IMG/VR virus record: IMGVR_UViG_3300044825_000311 | Location: 1 to 59,558 of that record | Strand: one strand, 5' to 3' | Source: a virus | Taxonomy: Duplodnaviria > Caudoviricetes | Length of the DNA stretch: 59,558 nt | Part shown: positions 11,840 through 30,311 of the stretch, piece by piece | How the letters are laid out: each line of letters starts with the position of its first letter | Numbering within the stretch: position 1 is the first letter of the stretch | Translations under genes and position numbers: made by a program | Notes under the pieces: generated by a model | Told to the model about the DNA's origin: nothing | The model's input: the letters and a program-made list of their open reading frames with translations, nothing else | Database searches by the model: none

Positions 11840-12115
11840 TCAGTTGATCAGAGCAAGCAGCCGCTCACGCCGCACTGCTGGTCCTTTAGGTATAACCTCT
11901 TCAAACCAGAGGCTGTCCTTCGTAAGGTCAAGTAATACCTTGATGACTTTGCGCGCCCTGAGAGCCTGCGCTGAACGCATATTGCCCCCGCGCACCCACA
12001 AGTAATACGTCATCCGCGAAACAGACATGGCCATGGCCATGTCTGTCGTGCTTAACCCAAGACGCTGACGAAGAATTTCTACCTTGGAGAAATCAATCGT
12101 CTTAGGCGTCGTCAT
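11840..12115 (-). CDS. XRE/Cro-family HTH protein
   Basis: LRQRLGLSTTDMAMAMSVSRMTYYLWVRG pattern. Confidence 0.75.
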   Translation of the reverse strand: MTTPKTIDFSKVEILRQRLGLSTTDMAMAMSVSRMTYYLWVRGGNMRSAQALRARKVIKVLLDLTKDSLWFEEVIPKGPAVRRERLLALIN

Positions 12116-23714: not shown

Positions 23715-23760
23715 AAGATCGCACGACAGTTGTGACGCTGCCATGCGACACGTTGTCGCG
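23715..23760 (-). promoter_or_regulatory. Palindrome-associated promoter element 1 (upstream of vWA gene)
   Basis: Minus strand cGCGACAacgTGTCGCA, TGGCAG, 17 bp, tgcGATCTT. Confidence 0.6.
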
Positions 23761-24034: not shown

Positions 24035-24279
24035 GGTAATCCTTTCATAACAGCGTAATCATAGAAGCGTTTGAAGTCTTGGTAGTACACAGACTGTATA
24101 TTATCCGACAAGTCTGTGTACTTATTGGTTTTTCTTTTTCTTTTTTCACCGTGCTTATAGAGAGGTAGGGTGAACTCTATACCATACAGCATCTTTACTG
24201 TAGCCGCTAAGGTTAGCACCCTATCGCGTCCGGGGTAGTGCGAGGGGGCCAGACGGACCCCCTCCCATGGTGCCATCAC
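24031..24279 (-). CDS. Hypothetical protein, AT-rich (82 aa)
   Basis: Start overlaps upstream stop; GGAGGA RBS. Confidence 0.6.
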   Translation of the reverse strand: MMAPWEGVRLAPSHYPGRDRVLTLAATVKMLYGIEFTLPLYKHGEKRKRKTNKYTDLSDNIQSVYYQDFKRFYDYAVMKGLP

Positions 24280-25136
24280 AGTCCTCCCATGAACACAGCC
24301 ATCTTATCCATGATGGCCTTGGCCTCATCGATCTTCTTTGTGCGGAACGTATCGTCTCCAAGCACCGCCTCTTTGTTGAGGCTGGCCAGCTTGGCCTCGA
24401 CCTCACGGCGCATGGCTTCGAGGTTGGGGTCATCGTTAAAGTTAAGGCGCGGCAGCAACTCGCACAGTTCCACGAGGTGTTCGATGCTGCTCTCATGAAA
24501 GCGGGACTTGGGATCGCTTACCTTAACCATCTTTTCGGTAAGGTGCTGGACCCGATCATACAGCCGCTGCCAAACGTCTTTCATTGCGGAAGCACTGGCT
24601 TGCTGAACACGTTCTTCTACGTCACGCTGTATCCGTGACAGTTCAGCGTCACCGATGCTTACACGAAAGTCGTTCGACGGAACGGGGAACACGGCCATGT
24701 CCATCTTGAACTTGGCTGCAATGTCCTTCTCGTGAGGGTAATCCTCTTCACGGTACAGCGAACCAAGGAACCGTTTGGCGTCAGCCTTGAGCAACGAATA
24801 GTTGCTGGTGAATAGGTTCACCAACGTCTCCCACTCGGACTTCTCCTTACGAAACTCATTGATGAAGTTGAGGTAATTGGAGGTGGGCAGCATCTGGGTG
24901 CCTTCGATGCCCCACGGCAACGTGTTCTCGTAATACTTGGTGCGAATATATCCTGCCTTCTGGTGGACGTTGGAGAGGTAGTCGTTAAGGGGCAGGAGCG
25001 ACTTGTTGTAGCGGCCAACGGAGGCGTTGACGCCATGGGTATTGGCCACCTCAAGGGTAGCCTTCTTGTCGTACTTTCGTGCCGTCCACTGGGAGATGTT
25101 AAGCTGGACGAGCAGAGCGCGGTCGGAAAGCTGCAT
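24276..25136 (-). CDS. Helical phage protein, DUF3150-like
   Basis: ISQW.ARK.D...YNKSLL...LPW...Y...P....KF pattern; lies between the AAA and vWA genes. Confidence 0.6.
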   Translation of the reverse strand: MQLSDRALLVQLNISQWTARKYDKKATLEVANTHGVNASVGRYNKSLLPLNDYLSNVHQKAGYIRTKYYENTLPWGIEGTQMLPTSNYLNFINEFRKEKSEWETLVNLFTSNYSLLKADAKRFLGSLYREEDYPHEKDIAAKFKMDMAVFPVPSNDFRVSIGDAELSRIQRDVEERVQQASASAMKDVWQRLYDRVQHLTEKMVKVSDPKSRFHESSIEHLVELCELLPRLNFNDDPNLEAMRREVEAKLASLNKEAVLGDDTFRTKKIDEAKAIMDKMAVFMGGL

Positions 25137-25153
25137 GGTATATATCCTTTGTT

Positions 25154-25209
25154 AGCCTCATCAGTGCCAGCATCACTGGCAGACGGGGGATTTCTCCCCC
25201 GTTTCGGCT
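25154..25209 (-). ncRNA. Type II hammerhead ribozyme HH1
   Basis: Minus strand AGCC-GAAA-C-GGGGGA-gaaa-UCCCCC-GUC/-UGCCAG-ugaug-CUGGCA-CUGAUGA-GGCU; all core nucleotides and three stems present. Confidence 0.93.
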
Positions 25210-25301
25210 TAGTGCATCAAAAGCACATGGGCGATAAATCCTGCCTGTGTAAGCAGGACACCCACTGCAAGCAAAAACAGCCAAAATGTCCAGCCTGTCA
25301 A
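25209..25301 (-). CDS. Small membrane peptide (30 aa)
   Basis: TTG start overlapping the AAA stop; MTGWTFWLFLLAVGVLLTQAGFIAHVLLMH; stop abuts HH1. Confidence 0.45.
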   Translation of the reverse strand: MTGWTFWLFLLAVGVLLTQAGFIAHVLLMH

Positions 25302-26296
25302 AACATCACGTCATGGTGCTTGATGACCCAGTTACCAAACGCTGCCGTATTGTGCAGCGCCTTGTCGCGGCGCAGCGCAAGGCTAACCGTAAGGACTGAG
25401 AACTCAGCGGGCATACGCTCCACGTACTGGCAAACACGTTCAAAGTTGGAAGTGCTGGCACGTTGTGCCAGTGAACCAGCAAGAGCGTACAGCGTAGCGG
25501 GATCGGTCGGAACGTCAGCCGACTGGGGGTTAAGCAGGATGGCGTCAGGGTTGGGCAGCTTGCGGAAGATACGCAAGAACCCAGTGAACTCAGAGGCCGG
25601 ACCCTCACCGACCGCACCCTTGAACGTCTCGAACTCAGCCTCCTTGGGCACTACGTCAATGGCAGGGGAAACACGTTCGCACCAGCCACGAGGTGTCGGG
25701 TTCTTGTCACGCTGGGCATCGAACTCGTGCAGCAGACCGGACTTGAAGCGGATGAAAGCGATAACCTCCGGGCGGATGTTGTTATCCATAGCCCACTTGG
25801 TCCAGTCATCGATGTGGGTTTCAAGCTCGAACTCGAACTCACGGTCGCTGAGATGGGACAGAACACGATTGGCACCAGCACGATCCTGCTGACGATTGCC
25901 AGTGGACAGGATGAACCAGTTATCAGCCATCGCTACACCGTGAAGCTCACGTTCCTGTACGAGATTAGCCAGTGCCTTCTGGAGATCGTTGTTAGCCTGA
26001 TTACGATCATCGAAGCACAGCACACCGGGCTGACCGTTGTCGTACTTGGACCCCTTGGCAGGGAACCAATCGGGCAGCTTGTAGTACAGCATGGGCTTGT
26101 CGATCATGGGAACACCCAAGTCTTCCACCGGGATGGTCGGGAGATGACGCTGGATGTACTGATAACCCAAGTCCTTGGCGACCTGTTTGATGATGGAGGT
26201 CTTGCCCCCACCCGGAGGGCCAACGATAACAGCCGATGACTTGACACCAGCCTGAAGCAGCGAAGAGATGGTATCCTTGAGAAGAGAAGCACGCAT
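25298..26296 (-). CDS. MoxR-like AAA+ ATPase
   Basis: Walker A GPPGGGKT, Walker B VLCFDD, TGNR, TPRGW; AAAGGA RBS before ATG 26296. Confidence 0.88.
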   Translation of the reverse strand: MRASLLKDTISSLLQAGVKSSAVIVGPPGGGKTSIIKQVAKDLGYQYIQRHLPTIPVEDLGVPMIDKPMLYYKLPDWFPAKGSKYDNGQPGVLCFDDRNQANNDLQKALANLVQERELHGVAMADNWFILSTGNRQQDRAGANRVLSHLSDREFEFELETHIDDWTKWAMDNNIRPEVIAFIRFKSGLLHEFDAQRDKNPTPRGWCERVSPAIDVVPKEAEFETFKGAVGEGPASEFTGFLRIFRKLPNPDAILLNPQSADVPTDPATLYALAGSLAQRASTSNFERVCQYVERMPAEFSVLTVSLALRRDKALHNTAAFGNWVIKHHDVMF

Positions 26297-26343
26297 TGGT
26301 TTATATATCCTTTGTTTGTTGTAGTGGGTTGGTCGAGGTCGGA

Positions 26344-26389
26344 AGTGTCGCACCATCCTCCGTGTCGGTCGATGCGACACGCTGTCGCA
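26344..26389 (-). promoter_or_regulatory. Palindrome-associated promoter element 2 (upstream of AAA gene)
   Basis: Minus strand TGCGACAgcgTGTCGCA, TCGACC, 17 bp, tgcGACACT. Confidence 0.6.
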
Positions 26390-26435
26390 GGGCAGGCTTG
26401 CCCTTGCTTTGTTTCAGCGAAGCTGCATGTTTTGC

Positions 26436-26675
26436 TTACGTTATCTGCTTTGCCAAAACTGGGTGCTTGGCACTGGGCATGAGCAAGCGTTTCTTATAGC
26501 CACGGCCTACGTTAAGGGCACGGTAGTAGGCTACAGCCTGATGGATGTTACCAGTGAAGCTCCACTTGGTGCGGTAAGCACTGCGGTTCTTACCTATCTG
26601 CACAAGGAACTCGGTCGTGTTGGTATAGACCAACGACTTGCCGTCGAGCGTGACAGTCTTGACTTCGATGGTCAT
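26436..26675 (-). CDS. Early hypothetical protein (79 aa)
   Basis: GGAGG RBS, TAATG coupling. Confidence 0.75.
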   Translation of the reverse strand: MTIEVKTVTLDGKSLVYTNTTEFLVQIGKNRSAYRTKWSFTGNIHQAVAYYRALNVGRGYKKRLLMPSAKHPVLAKQIT

Positions 26676-27430: not shown

Positions 27431-27617
27431 GGAATATCTCCCTGCAAATCTTGTTAAAACCATAGTCAGACATAAGGGCCAGTGCCTCATCGCTGGGCAG
27501 CTTGCCGCGATTGCACGTCCGGGTTACCCCGGACGCTCTCTGTGTGATGAATACCGTATGGTTGCCGACATAACGCAACCGCCAGCATTCGCTGTCGATG
27601 CTCAACCAATTAGCCAT
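27423..27617 (-). CDS. Early hypothetical protein (64 aa)
   Basis: GAGGAGAACACCAATG start context. Confidence 0.7.
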   Translation of the reverse strand: MANWLSIDSECWRLRYVGNHTVFITQRASGVTRTCNRGKLPSDEALALMSDYGFNKICREIFHG

Positions 27618-27978
27618 TGGTGTTCTCCTCGGTTGCGTTAAGCCTATCGTTAATAAGGCTGGTATAGCCCAGCCGATCCAAGAGCTTGATCTGCTCAAGG
27701 GTCAAGAGAACGGTTTCGCAATGCGGATGGGTAAACGACCTGTGTTTGGACGTTGTCGGACCATACTTTTCCTTGTTCTCGAACCACGTATTGACCTTGG
27801 GAACATAGACGAACAACGGCCAATGGGGTCCGTAGCTATAGACGCAGTAACGGGCGAGGCTACCATCAGGGGTATCCTGCCACTCAGCGTAAAGCTGGCC
27901 ATTGGAGTTCTTGAACGGGGTTCGAGCCTTGACATAGGGACGAGCAGTACGTCCATTAATTCGCTTAGGCTTAGTCAT
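27610..27978 (-). CDS. Early hypothetical protein (122 aa) directly downstream of HH2
   Basis: AAAGGA RBS before ATG 27978; YCVYSYGPHWPL...TTSKH. Confidence 0.75.
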   Translation of the reverse strand: MTKPKRINGRTARPYVKARTPFKNSNGQLYAEWQDTPDGSLARYCVYSYGPHWPLFVYVPKVNTWFENKEKYGPTTSKHRSFTHPHCETVLLTLEQIKLLDRLGYTSLINDRLNATEENTNG

Positions 27979-27993
27979 AATATATCCTTTGTT

Positions 27994-28045
27994 GGCCTCA
28001 TCAGTGCCAGCGTCACTGGCAGACCGCCTCACGGCGGTTTCGGCC
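27994..28045 (-). ncRNA. Type II hammerhead ribozyme HH2
   Basis: Minus strand GGCC-GAAA-C-CGCC-guga-GGCG-GUC/-UGCCAG-ugacg-CUGGCA-CUGAUGA-GGCC. Confidence 0.93.
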
Positions 28046-28051
28046 TTAAGG

Positions 28052-28264
28052 TTACGAGTGGACGTAACCATCCTGCTCAATGGCAAGCCACATGCCGCAC
28101 CAGTGAACGACTACAGCGCCATCCATACCAAACGTGGGCTGTACGGTTCGACGGAACTGGCGGTAGCTTATGCCTTTGGCCTTAAGGTCGCCGTGGGCAT
28201 ACTTGCGGAGCAGGGCGATACGCTGTTTGCGATTTAGCTTAACGTAAGTTTTAGCACTAACCAT
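28052..28264 (-). CDS. Early hypothetical protein (70 aa)
   Basis: AAGGAGAACACCAATG start; ends WCGMWLAIEQDGYVHS. Confidence 0.75.
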   Translation of the reverse strand: MVSAKTYVKLNRKQRIALLRKYAHGDLKAKGISYRQFRRTVQPTFGMDGAVVVHWCGMWLAIEQDGYVHS

Positions 28265-28463
28265 TGGTGTTCTCCTTGGGCATAAGGTGCAGTTGGGCGG
28301 TGGCGACGGCATCACCAAAATCATCGGTGTAATAGTCGCAGAGGTGGAGGTATTCCTCCTTGAGATGGAACTGTACGATGTATTCCTTGTAGTCGCGGTT
28401 ATATCGAACCACGGCCTTACGACCATTGGGGTTAGAGCCTTGGTAGACAATGTGACTAGCCAT
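28257..28463 (-). CDS. Early hypothetical protein (68 aa)
   Basis: AAGGA RBS, tiled operon. Confidence 0.7.
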   Translation of the reverse strand: MASHIVYQGSNPNGRKAVVRYNRDYKEYIVQFHLKEEYLHLCDYYTDDFGDAVATAQLHLMPKENTNG

Positions 28464-28743: not shown

Positions 28744-28789
28744 AGCGTCCCACATAGGGCGCGGCTTGTACATGCGACACGTTGTCGCA
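28744..28789 (-). promoter_or_regulatory. Palindrome-associated promoter element 3 (head of early operon)
   Basis: Minus strand TGCGACAacgTGTCGCA, TGTACA, 17 bp, tggGACGCT. Confidence 0.6.
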
Positions 28790-28794
28790 TCCTT

Positions 28795-29300
28795 AAGTTA
28801 TACATAGGTATCTGTAGATGGGTCGGAAGACAGGCAAACTATCTGTTATACACGGATAGGCTAAGTGCCTGATTTCATTGGTTCTTTTTGCAACTATCTG
28901 AACTATCTGTGTTTTTGAAGGTAATGAGCTACTACATTGATGAAGGCTGTTAATGTTAATTGAATTCTAGTCGAAAAAGGTTTGTGGCATATATATTTTT
29001 AACGGATAAACTATATATATAGGATACCAAAAAAATCTAGATCGGGCTAAGTCCTTGGTTTCATTGGAGAATCCGGAAACTATACGTAAAGTATTCCCCT
29101 TTTGTTCATGTATAAATCGAAACAGATAGTTCGGAAAGCGCAGATATTTCACCGCTAAGTCATTGATATCACAGCATATTCGCCGTTTTGTATAATTGTA
29201 AATGTATAATTAACCTTAACACTGTATACTTATACATAAGCTATAAGGCTTACAGTTGTATAATAAGGCTACGAGCTATAGGCCCCCGACGTATGGCCTA
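28795..29300. other. AT-rich non-coding region with iterated motifs and IHF-like sites; candidate origin or genome-end region
   Basis: AACTATCTG x4, TTATACA x7, YAAnnnnTTGATW-like x3. Confidence 0.5.
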
Positions 29301-29345
29301 CTACACACCCCCAAACGCAACCGCGCAGCGAACGTAGACGCAGAC

Positions 29346-29378
29346 AAAAAGAAACCCCGGTCCTTTCGGAGCCGGGGC
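29346..29378 (-). terminator. Rho-independent terminator
   Basis: Minus strand GCCCCGG-ctccgaaagga-CCGGGGT followed by TTCTTTTT. Confidence 0.8.
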
Positions 29379-30235: not shown

Positions 30236-30295
30236 CCCCCAAAACCAAAGTTAACATCAACAAAAAATTATACAGCCCCCAAAACCAAAGTTAAC
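30236..30295 (+). repeat. Two exact 20-bp direct repeats, 40-bp period
   Basis: CCCCCAAAACCAAAGTTAAC at 30236 and 30276. Confidence 0.9.
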
Positions 30296-30311
30296 CTTAA
30301 CATATTCCACC

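Follow-up and report, generated by a model that had tools for sequence, protein, structure and literature searches.

The window analysed here, a complete virus record of 59,558 bp with direct terminal repeats from an uncultured phage, carries two type II hammerhead ribozymes, HH1 and HH2 (Table 1), which we regard as very probably genuine. They lie between phage genes, a layout known since 2011, and they are under selection at the RNA level. We lean towards the view that both are active in an operon transcript, which they would cut into hairpin-capped messages, uncoupling the downstream gene, and that they do so as accessory elements.

Table 1. Positions in the window of the two hammerheads, their 3' tails, the repeat that spans them and the adjoining genes
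Feature	Position	Strand	Details
Gene 5' of HH2	28052..28450	-	stop TAA 28054-28052, 6 nt ahead of ribozyme
HH2, type II hammerhead ribozyme	27994..28045	-	predicted cleavage after C28022 (28022/28021)
HH2 3' tail with Shine-Dalgarno AAGGA 27989-27985 and ATG 27978-27976 of 122-aa gene	27976..27993	-	read directly
Gene 3' of HH2	27610..27978	-	122 aa; ORF list
AAA ATPase gene 5' of HH1	25298..26380	-	phrog_1297 E 1.4e-68, AAA_5
HH1, type II hammerhead ribozyme	25154..25209	-	predicted cleavage after C25182 (25182/25181)
45-nt direct repeat, partner 27980-28024	25140..25184	-	96% identical, spacing 2840 nt; repeat search
HH1 3' tail with Shine-Dalgarno AAGGA 25149-25145 and ATG 25136-25134 of 286-aa gene	25134..25153	-	read directly
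Gene 3' of HH1	24276..25136	-	286 aa; ORF list

Both copies are intergenic, lie on the coding strand and have a complete catalytic core, consisting of CUGAUGA, GAAA, the A15.1-U16.1 pair and a GUC cleavage site. In HH2, the 5' strand of stem II (GGCC, 28045-28042) is followed by GAAA, and its 3' strand is GGCC at 27997-27994. Stem III reads A-CCGCC, a GUGA loop and GGCGG-U, followed by GUC, while stem I is formed by UGCCAG and CUGGCA around a UGACG loop and leads into CUGAUGA. HH1 has the same stem I, the sole difference in its loop being UGAUG vs. UGACG; its stem III is GGGGGA / GAAA / UCCCCC and its stem II AGCC/GGCU. An earlier note on this DNA had described a shared core and stem I, and the direct reading agrees. 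It likewise bears out the different stem III sequences reported there (CGCC-GUGA-GGCG vs. GGGGGA-GAAA-UCCCCC), which are unrelated, and the compensatory outer pair of stem II, G-C in HH2 and A-U in HH1. The distance of 2.84 kb given for the second copy is exactly 2840 nt between the predicted cleavage sites. The pairs adjoining the core (10.1-11.1, 1.1-2.1 and 15.1-16.1) are G-C, U-A and A-U in both ribozymes; standard pairs at these places were used as a criterion in the work of Perreault et al. (PMC3088659).

In a comparison with all 4227 Rfam families, both copies match RF02276 (Hammerhead_II) over the full model (1-66) with E ~3e-4, HH2 at 27987-28045 with 38.2 bits and HH1 at 25147-25209 with 38.1 bits, which exceeds the gathering score of 37 by a small margin. 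The rest of the window gave no further Rfam match at E<=5, and RF02276 had no matches in 14 control genomes. In minimum free energy folding with 15-20 nt of flank, both ribozymes form the hammerhead three-way junction (z -3.2 and -2.7). A structural descriptor, composed of GAAA, an A-U-closed stem III hairpin, a non-G nucleotide, a stem I hairpin, CUGANGA and stem II, found 208 matches (167 distinct) in 1.93 Mb of loci vs. 0 in mononucleotide shuffles, and 0 of 100 shuffles contained any match to a tail-plus-core pattern. A candidate third hammerhead on the plus strand (12016-12071), matched by a loose regular expression, was rejected, as its stems I and II do not pair by the rules and Rfam lends it no support.

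For the analysis of covariation, the two window copies were aligned with 15 distinct copies from related contigs. Across these 17 copies, 99.3% of 290 cells are standard pairs and 13 of the 19 pairs have changed on both sides; in a control with the pairing partners slid by 1-3 columns, 26-45% were paired. None of 500 shuffles scored as high on four of the five covariation measures, and 43 of 500 did so on “further pair types”. The core columns are invariant except for a U to C change at N7 in one copy. We conclude that the RNA structure is under selection because of the pairing and covariation statistics across the 17 copies; together with the RF02276 scores, these substantiate the argument of the earlier note that structure had been kept while sequence diverged.

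HH1 and HH2 belong to a compact subclass in which stem I has 6 bp and a 5-nt loop resembling U-N-A-N-G, and a 4-bp stem II is adjoined on the 5' side by a conserved A. Of the 167 distinct descriptor copies, 104 combine a stem I hairpin of 17 nt with a stem II of 4 bp; this sample is biased in length, since the pattern prescribes some of the core positions and admits stem I lengths of 15-21 nt, and its copies are non-independent. In loop I, the first position is U in 111/117 copies and the third is A in 81/117, and 146/167 copies have an A directly 5' of stem II. This A remains in 124 of the 144 copies in which the triplet ending there (-7 to -5 from GAAA) is not a stop codon; if the stop codon is shifted by one nucleotide in the 3' direction, it can still be the source of this A. 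A pseudoknot between loop I and the 3' tail is described by Perreault et al. in the majority of their type II examples (PMC3088659); it is common in the type II family without defining it. It is absent from HH1 and HH2, where the longest complementary run is 3 bp, at chance level. Complementarity of at least 4 bp is enriched in the long-loop class (26/32 vs. 19.3 +/- 2.4 in permutations), and in the short-loop class it is at chance (53/135 vs. 50.8 +/- 4.7). The conserved unpaired positions make another tertiary contact in the compact subclass likely. Members of this subclass may already be among the alignments of Perreault et al. Because HH1 and HH2 lack a pseudoknot that is reported to be important for fast cleavage, their rate at cellular Mg2+ is uncertain.

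The arrangement of the two intergenic gaps is the same, each holding a 5' flank, the ribozyme, a Shine-Dalgarno sequence and an ATG in this order; HH2 ends 15 nt ahead of the ATG of the 122-aa gene. This order of stop, ribozyme, Shine-Dalgarno and start is the rule among the 167 distinct viral type II hammerheads. A generic type II pattern matched at least 120 viral contigs. Among the 167, an upstream ORF stops within 12 nt of 140 ribozymes (140/167) vs. 479/3340 random positions, a start opening at least 40 codons follows within 40 nt in 143/167 vs. 1378/3340, and a Shine-Dalgarno-like motif with a start within 40 nt is found in 118/167 vs. 407/3340, with the reservation that proximity of stops and starts is partly expected of any intergenic element in a compact genome. 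For 123/167 ribozymes, the end of the upstream stop falls in the interval from 5 nt inside the 5' end of the ribozyme to 4 nt before it. Hammerheads often occur in clusters, the largest of which have 9 members in ~4 kb. Nine type II hammerheads at intervals of 250-900 nt are packed into ~3-4 kb on the minus strand of contig L109, and nine more on the plus strand of contig L119, so that nearly every small gene is flanked, which exceeds the triple clusters described in the 2011 paper (PMC3088659).

Does the ribosome-binding site travel with the ribozyme? The 14-nt tail AACAAAGGAUAUAU is identical after HH1 and HH2, in line with the claim of the earlier note that the same ribosome-binding segment follows both copies, and it is part of a 45-nt direct repeat that comprises the 3' half of the ribozyme plus the ribosome-binding site and extends 14 nt beyond the ribozyme. 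The duplication of this tract occurs only in the window genome and is lacking in its relatives; copying of the tract between the HH1 and HH2 sites would explain it best. Stem III of HH2 is common to a copy at another junction in L003 (site B, below), and its stem I and loop are common to copies at the junction of HH1 (site C), which suggests exchange among hammerhead copies. The tails of the ribozymes vary from site to site and among relatives, and L008 has no hammerhead ahead of the 286-aa gene while its ribosome-binding segment is nearly as in the window. Because of these two observations, the ribosome-binding site belongs mostly to the downstream gene. Of the portable ribozyme-plus-ribosome-binding module envisaged in the earlier note, the portable ribozyme is retained, as it is found at different junctions, and the general inclusion of the ribosome-binding site is not. 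The notion of a required translation-initiation module has to be given up, as most relatives have these genes without any hammerhead. In the fold of HH2, an upstream CCUU pairs with the AAGG of the Shine-Dalgarno sequence. Masking of this sequence that is relieved by cleavage was rejected as a general feature, since the duplex energy of cognate upstream and downstream segments was -4.86 kcal/mol vs. -4.85 kcal/mol for permuted ones (166 ribozymes). Our literature search returned nothing specific on a link between ribozymes and ribosome-binding sites in phages.

The distribution of the ribozyme was followed in IMG/VR relatives of the 286-aa protein, of which 289 were found and 80 loci kept, and junctions were assigned by mapping the flanking ORFs of the relatives onto the window genes. 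RF02276 at E<=0.01 matched 5 of the first 50 relative records, 2 of them above the cut-off, and the descriptor found hammerheads in L049, L063 and L069 that this search missed. Four junctions are occupied. At site A, before the 122-aa gene, which holds HH2 in the window, the ribozyme is present in 1/31 assessable relatives and, in a pattern scan, also in L004, L005 and L006; the homologues of the 122-aa gene in L003, L004, L005 and L006 are likewise preceded by a hammerhead. Site B, before the 79-aa gene (26436-26675), is empty in the window and occupied in 1/4 relatives and also in L004. Site C, between the ATPase and the 286-aa gene, holds HH1 in the window and a hammerhead in 7/73 relatives and also in L004; those carrying one at this junction include L003/L012, L004, L049, L063 and L069. 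Site D, before the ATPase, is empty in the window and occupied in 3/65 relatives, with no further contigs. In L007, three near-identical cores lie between genes that are dissimilar to every window ORF. Because four junctions are occupied, and each only sporadically among relatives, the ribozyme is, judged from these comparisons, movable, independent of the downstream gene and dispensable, that is, an accessory element that is gained, lost and copied between junctions. The earlier note had proposed related genomes as the place to look for movement of the cassette, and movement of the ribozyme is supported by the four junctions and by the unrelated genes in L007.

Site C shows several alternatives to a ribozyme. 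A gap of at most 15 nt without insert is present in 26/73 relatives, and many of the 21 longer gaps inspected by eye contain a GC-rich hairpin, an A/C-rich spacer and a Shine-Dalgarno sequence. The folded hairpin at this site in L009 (GGGGGAGAC...GUCUCCCCC) resembles stem III of HH1. An extended hairpin of about 95 nt occupies the ATPase/286-aa junction in L041 (5872-6001), L048 (3801-3926) and L059 (1144-1272), and also in L050 and L054; it has z values of -3.6 and -2.9, differs between L041 and L048 at several stem positions, and had no Rfam match in L041 or L059, so that it stands as a structured RNA without assignment. As to other ribozyme classes, six of the approximately 66 assessable loci without hammerhead were searched and gave no Rfam match at E<=1. 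At site A in L006 (417-472), the stem III helix equals that of HH2 and the tetraloop is its reverse complement, UCAC vs. GUGA, as would be expected if the DNA encoding the loop had been inverted. The window itself has an 86-nt spacer (25212-25297) between the ATPase stop and HH1, with a short hairpin CCUGC...GCAGG and then a U-rich run. L003 lacks this spacer, its stop abutting the ribozyme, and the spacer may be a weak terminator or a remnant.

According to the ORF list and family searches, minus-strand genes run from ~28,800 down to 8,900 in the order small unassigned ORFs, AAA ATPase, 286-aa protein, DUF2201 VWA/metallopeptidase protein, DNA polymerase A, helicase and primase. The stretch at 28,800-29,350 is AT-rich and non-coding, contains promoter-like hexamers and is located after a terminator-like hairpin. 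The 122-aa gene and the other small flanking genes had no matches in Pfam, PHROG or NCBIfam. The true start of the gene at 28052..28450 is probably internal, its homologues being 72-79 aa long. A distant homologue of the 286-aa protein in a cyanophage record carries a DUF3150 annotation. Family searches, the one comparison made of the 122-aa and 286-aa gene products, found no family common to both. A megablast of the phage collection gave no match and so no close cultured relative; at the protein level relatives are distant, with identities of 27.5% between the 286-aa protein and cyanophage proteins and of 39.5% between the DNA polymerase and the enzyme of Rhizobium phages.

Further repeats were seen in this part of the genome. 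The minus-strand operon contains three copies of the palindrome GCGACA-NNN-TGTCGC (23745-23759, 26374-26388 and 28774-28788), a number reached by 0/100 shuffles, with conservation limited to a core of about 17 nt. Its copies are at the heads of gene blocks, alternating with HH1 and HH2, and the middle one is preceded by a GC hairpin (26389-26404); the palindrome might serve as an operator, belong to a promoter or form a hairpin in the RNA. Two copies of a 27-nt direct repeat (CCCCCAAAACCAAAGTTAAC...), 40 nt apart, lie at 30236-30302, in the intergenic region from which the early genes (minus strand) and the packaging genes (plus strand) diverge, where the repeat overlaps a promoter-like site.

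We propose that HH1 and HH2 would be transcribed inside the minus-strand early/replication operon, and that the three-way junction would form behind RNA polymerase and cut after GUC with no host enzyme. The upstream piece would carry a 2',3'-cyclic phosphate and terminate in the stem III hairpin, ~25-30 nt past its 5' flank, and the downstream piece would start with a 5'-hydroxyl and the 6-bp stem I hairpin, with the Shine-Dalgarno sequence and ATG ~25 nt further on. As the two halves would be held by the 4-bp stem II alone, they should separate. The polycistronic RNA would in this way become gene- or block-length messages with defined hairpin-capped ends, and the stability and translation of the downstream gene would be uncoupled from the upstream RNA. 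For 5'-end-dependent RNase E, a 5'-OH end makes a poor substrate, and an RNA that ends in a 2',3'-cyclic phosphate does not allow direct polyadenylation. We infer cleavage in vivo, co-transcription and effects on stability and translation from the observed motif, structure, covariation, position and distribution. The alternation with plain hairpins at site C fits a role in shaping message ends. Against a cutting role, most relatives have no ribozyme at the same junctions, so that the benefit would be small or conditional, and against one spanning transcript, the palindrome and hairpin between the two sites (26374-26404) could be a boundary of transcription units.

Related sequence was found by a run search in wastewater and aquatic libraries only at small shares (<=0.11), and the comparison used four of the 10 listed runs in the form of short assembled contigs, which show no RNA ends. 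One contig of run X1, possibly a DNA run, crosses HH2 uncut (27832-28057), and the match of one X7 contig is limited to the conserved core of the hammerhead of another phage. No contig joined 25182 to 28021, although such a joint would not be visible in contigs that come from partial relatives. Contigs from two metatranscriptome runs join 27422 straight to 27610, skipping 187 nt, which suggests related phages without this stretch.

It is possible, and we hold it as a tentative alternative, that the ribozymes are active but selfish or neutral passengers, spread between junctions by recombination or gene conversion, whose intercistronic cuts are tolerated because they do little damage. The sporadic occupancy of each junction (7/73, 1/31, 1/4 and 3/65), the tight insert-free site C junction of many relatives, the 45-nt tract copied between both window sites, the parts that HH2 has in common with the L003 site B copy and with site C copies, and the near-identical cores between unrelated genes in L007 would all be accommodated, and selection at the RNA level could act on the element itself. 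However, pairing and the catalytic core are strictly kept across diverged copies, where a merely tolerated insert would decay, and unpaired positions, namely the U of loop I and the A 5' of stem II, are conserved too. It seems unlikely that cleavage is conditional in such a way that a ribosome ending the upstream gene, at a stop 0-6 nt off, covers stem II and GAAA, and that the RNA is cut when translation lapses or in dependence on Mg2+, which would tune the ratio of neighbouring gene products. The closeness of upstream stops to the 5' end in 123/167 copies would suit this idea, as would the missing pseudoknot, which suggests a slower, tunable ribozyme, and regulated cleavage of phage hammerheads was raised by Perreault et al. 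(PMC3088659). On the other hand, the nearest real upstream stop of HH1 is 86 nt off, so that coupling is not general, nothing resembling a switch or a ligand-binding element is seen, and the pairing that would mask the Shine-Dalgarno sequence is no better than in the permuted controls. The least probable alternative, which we practically dismiss, is a role of the DNA itself, as protein-binding sites or recombination boundaries between gene modules, with an incidental likeness to hammerheads. It would draw on the direct 45-nt repeats 2.84 kb apart and on the mosaic look of copies at different junctions, and it is opposed by compensatory double changes that keep Watson-Crick pairing in all three helices, an RNA signature, by invariant positions that are exactly the catalytic core, and by the location of all copies on the coding strand.

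Could the two cuts together yield a circular message? Double cleavage would free a 2840-nt segment (28021 to 25182) with six ORFs between the cleavage sites, which the host RtcB or a reverse hammerhead reaction might circularise into a translatable RNA. Hammerhead end chemistry suits RtcB, the joined RNA would again contain a hammerhead, with its 5' half from HH1 and its 3' half from HH2, and many arrays have one stem II sequence in common. We nevertheless judge such a circle very improbable. The phage has no RtcB or RNA ligase among its genes, the rebuilt stem II (AGCC vs. GGCC) would have an A-C mismatch at its outer pair, the ends of a 2.8-kb RNA would be held by just 3-4 bp, and co-transcription of both sites is presupposed; moreover, Perreault et al. 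state, as data not shown, that they detected no spliced or circular products at such clusters (PMC3088659). Equally far-fetched is the broader conjecture that arrays with a shared stem II give compatible ends, rejoined by the reverse hammerhead reaction or RtcB into circular or reordered mRNAs, among them a 2840-nt six-gene circle with a chimeric ribozyme, and that they are spread by gene conversion.

The favoured reading, cleavage into hairpin-capped messages, has its closest counterpart in the clusters described by Perreault et al. in 2011 (PMC3088659, RF02276), which share with HH1 and HH2 the core and the circular permutation, stems I and III being closed and stem II open; they too are intergenic, next to single genes or short blocks, with several copies within a few kb and the same proposed role. 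Unlike the majority of the type II examples in that paper, HH1 and HH2 have no pseudoknot between loop I and the 3' tail. Those authors report type II hammerhead clusters flanking phage genes with cleavage in vitro and in vivo, including cleavage of polycistronic constructs of about 2 kb in vitro, and they proposed processing into gene-length mRNAs as well as a circular RNA (PMC3088659). The interpretation in the earlier note largely restates these printed hypotheses. Hammerheads of DNA phages are treated as already described in a further article (PMC13725137). According to Olzog et al. (2021), three type II hammerheads cleave in Desulfovibrio vulgaris in vivo, as detected by cyPhyRNA-seq (PMC8782182). 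These too are near phage-like genes, with two close together as here (PMC8782182). With 29-32 nt and 39 nt, their minimal fragments exceed those of HH1 and HH2 (24-28 nt and 28 nt), and their cleavage was measured in another organism, whereas the window ribozymes are known from sequence.

Other resemblances are functional. The RNase III sites of T7 are an analogy to HH1 and HH2 and do not place them in the same class. In T7, intercistronic RNase III cuts between early genes give gene-length mRNAs ending in hairpins, and a host protein cuts a long imperfect duplex, leaving 5'-phosphate and 3'-OH. HH1 and HH2 have helices of 4-8 bp around a hammerhead core and no long imperfect duplex of the RNase III type; theirs would be self-cutting RNA with predicted 5'-OH and 2',3'-cyclic phosphate ends, unlike the T7 products. 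RiboJ is an engineered insulator derived from a satellite-RNA hammerhead and placed before the ribosome-binding site. As in RiboJ, a hammerhead directly 5' of the ribosome-binding site would remove the upstream RNA and leave a short 5' UTR led by a hairpin; the phage elements are natural and insulation by them is an analogy. Viroids, satellite RNAs and retrozymes form proven circles from short units of non-coding or retroelement RNA. These units likewise arise by two hammerhead cuts that leave 5'-OH and 2',3'-cyclic phosphate, while the window unit would be a 2.8-kb six-gene mRNA segment. The hammerheads of infectious circular RNAs are described as nearly all type III (PMC13725137).

The purpose of bacterial hammerheads is described as still undefined (PMC6765202), and that of phage hammerheads has been a standing question since 2011, which the window and its relatives narrow without settling it. 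The ribozyme is dispensable at every occupied junction, moves independently of the genes and usually comes without a ribosome-binding site of its own, and its place at the ATPase/286-aa junction is, in other relatives, empty or taken by plain GC-rich hairpins or the ~95-nt hairpin. Because it is dispensable, mobile, free of its own ribosome-binding site and alternates with hairpins, the evidence favours a function in shaping mRNA ends over one in the initiation of translation. The compact pseudoknot-free subclass may hold an undescribed tertiary contact, and junctions with and without the ribozyme are natural matched pairs for reporter tests.
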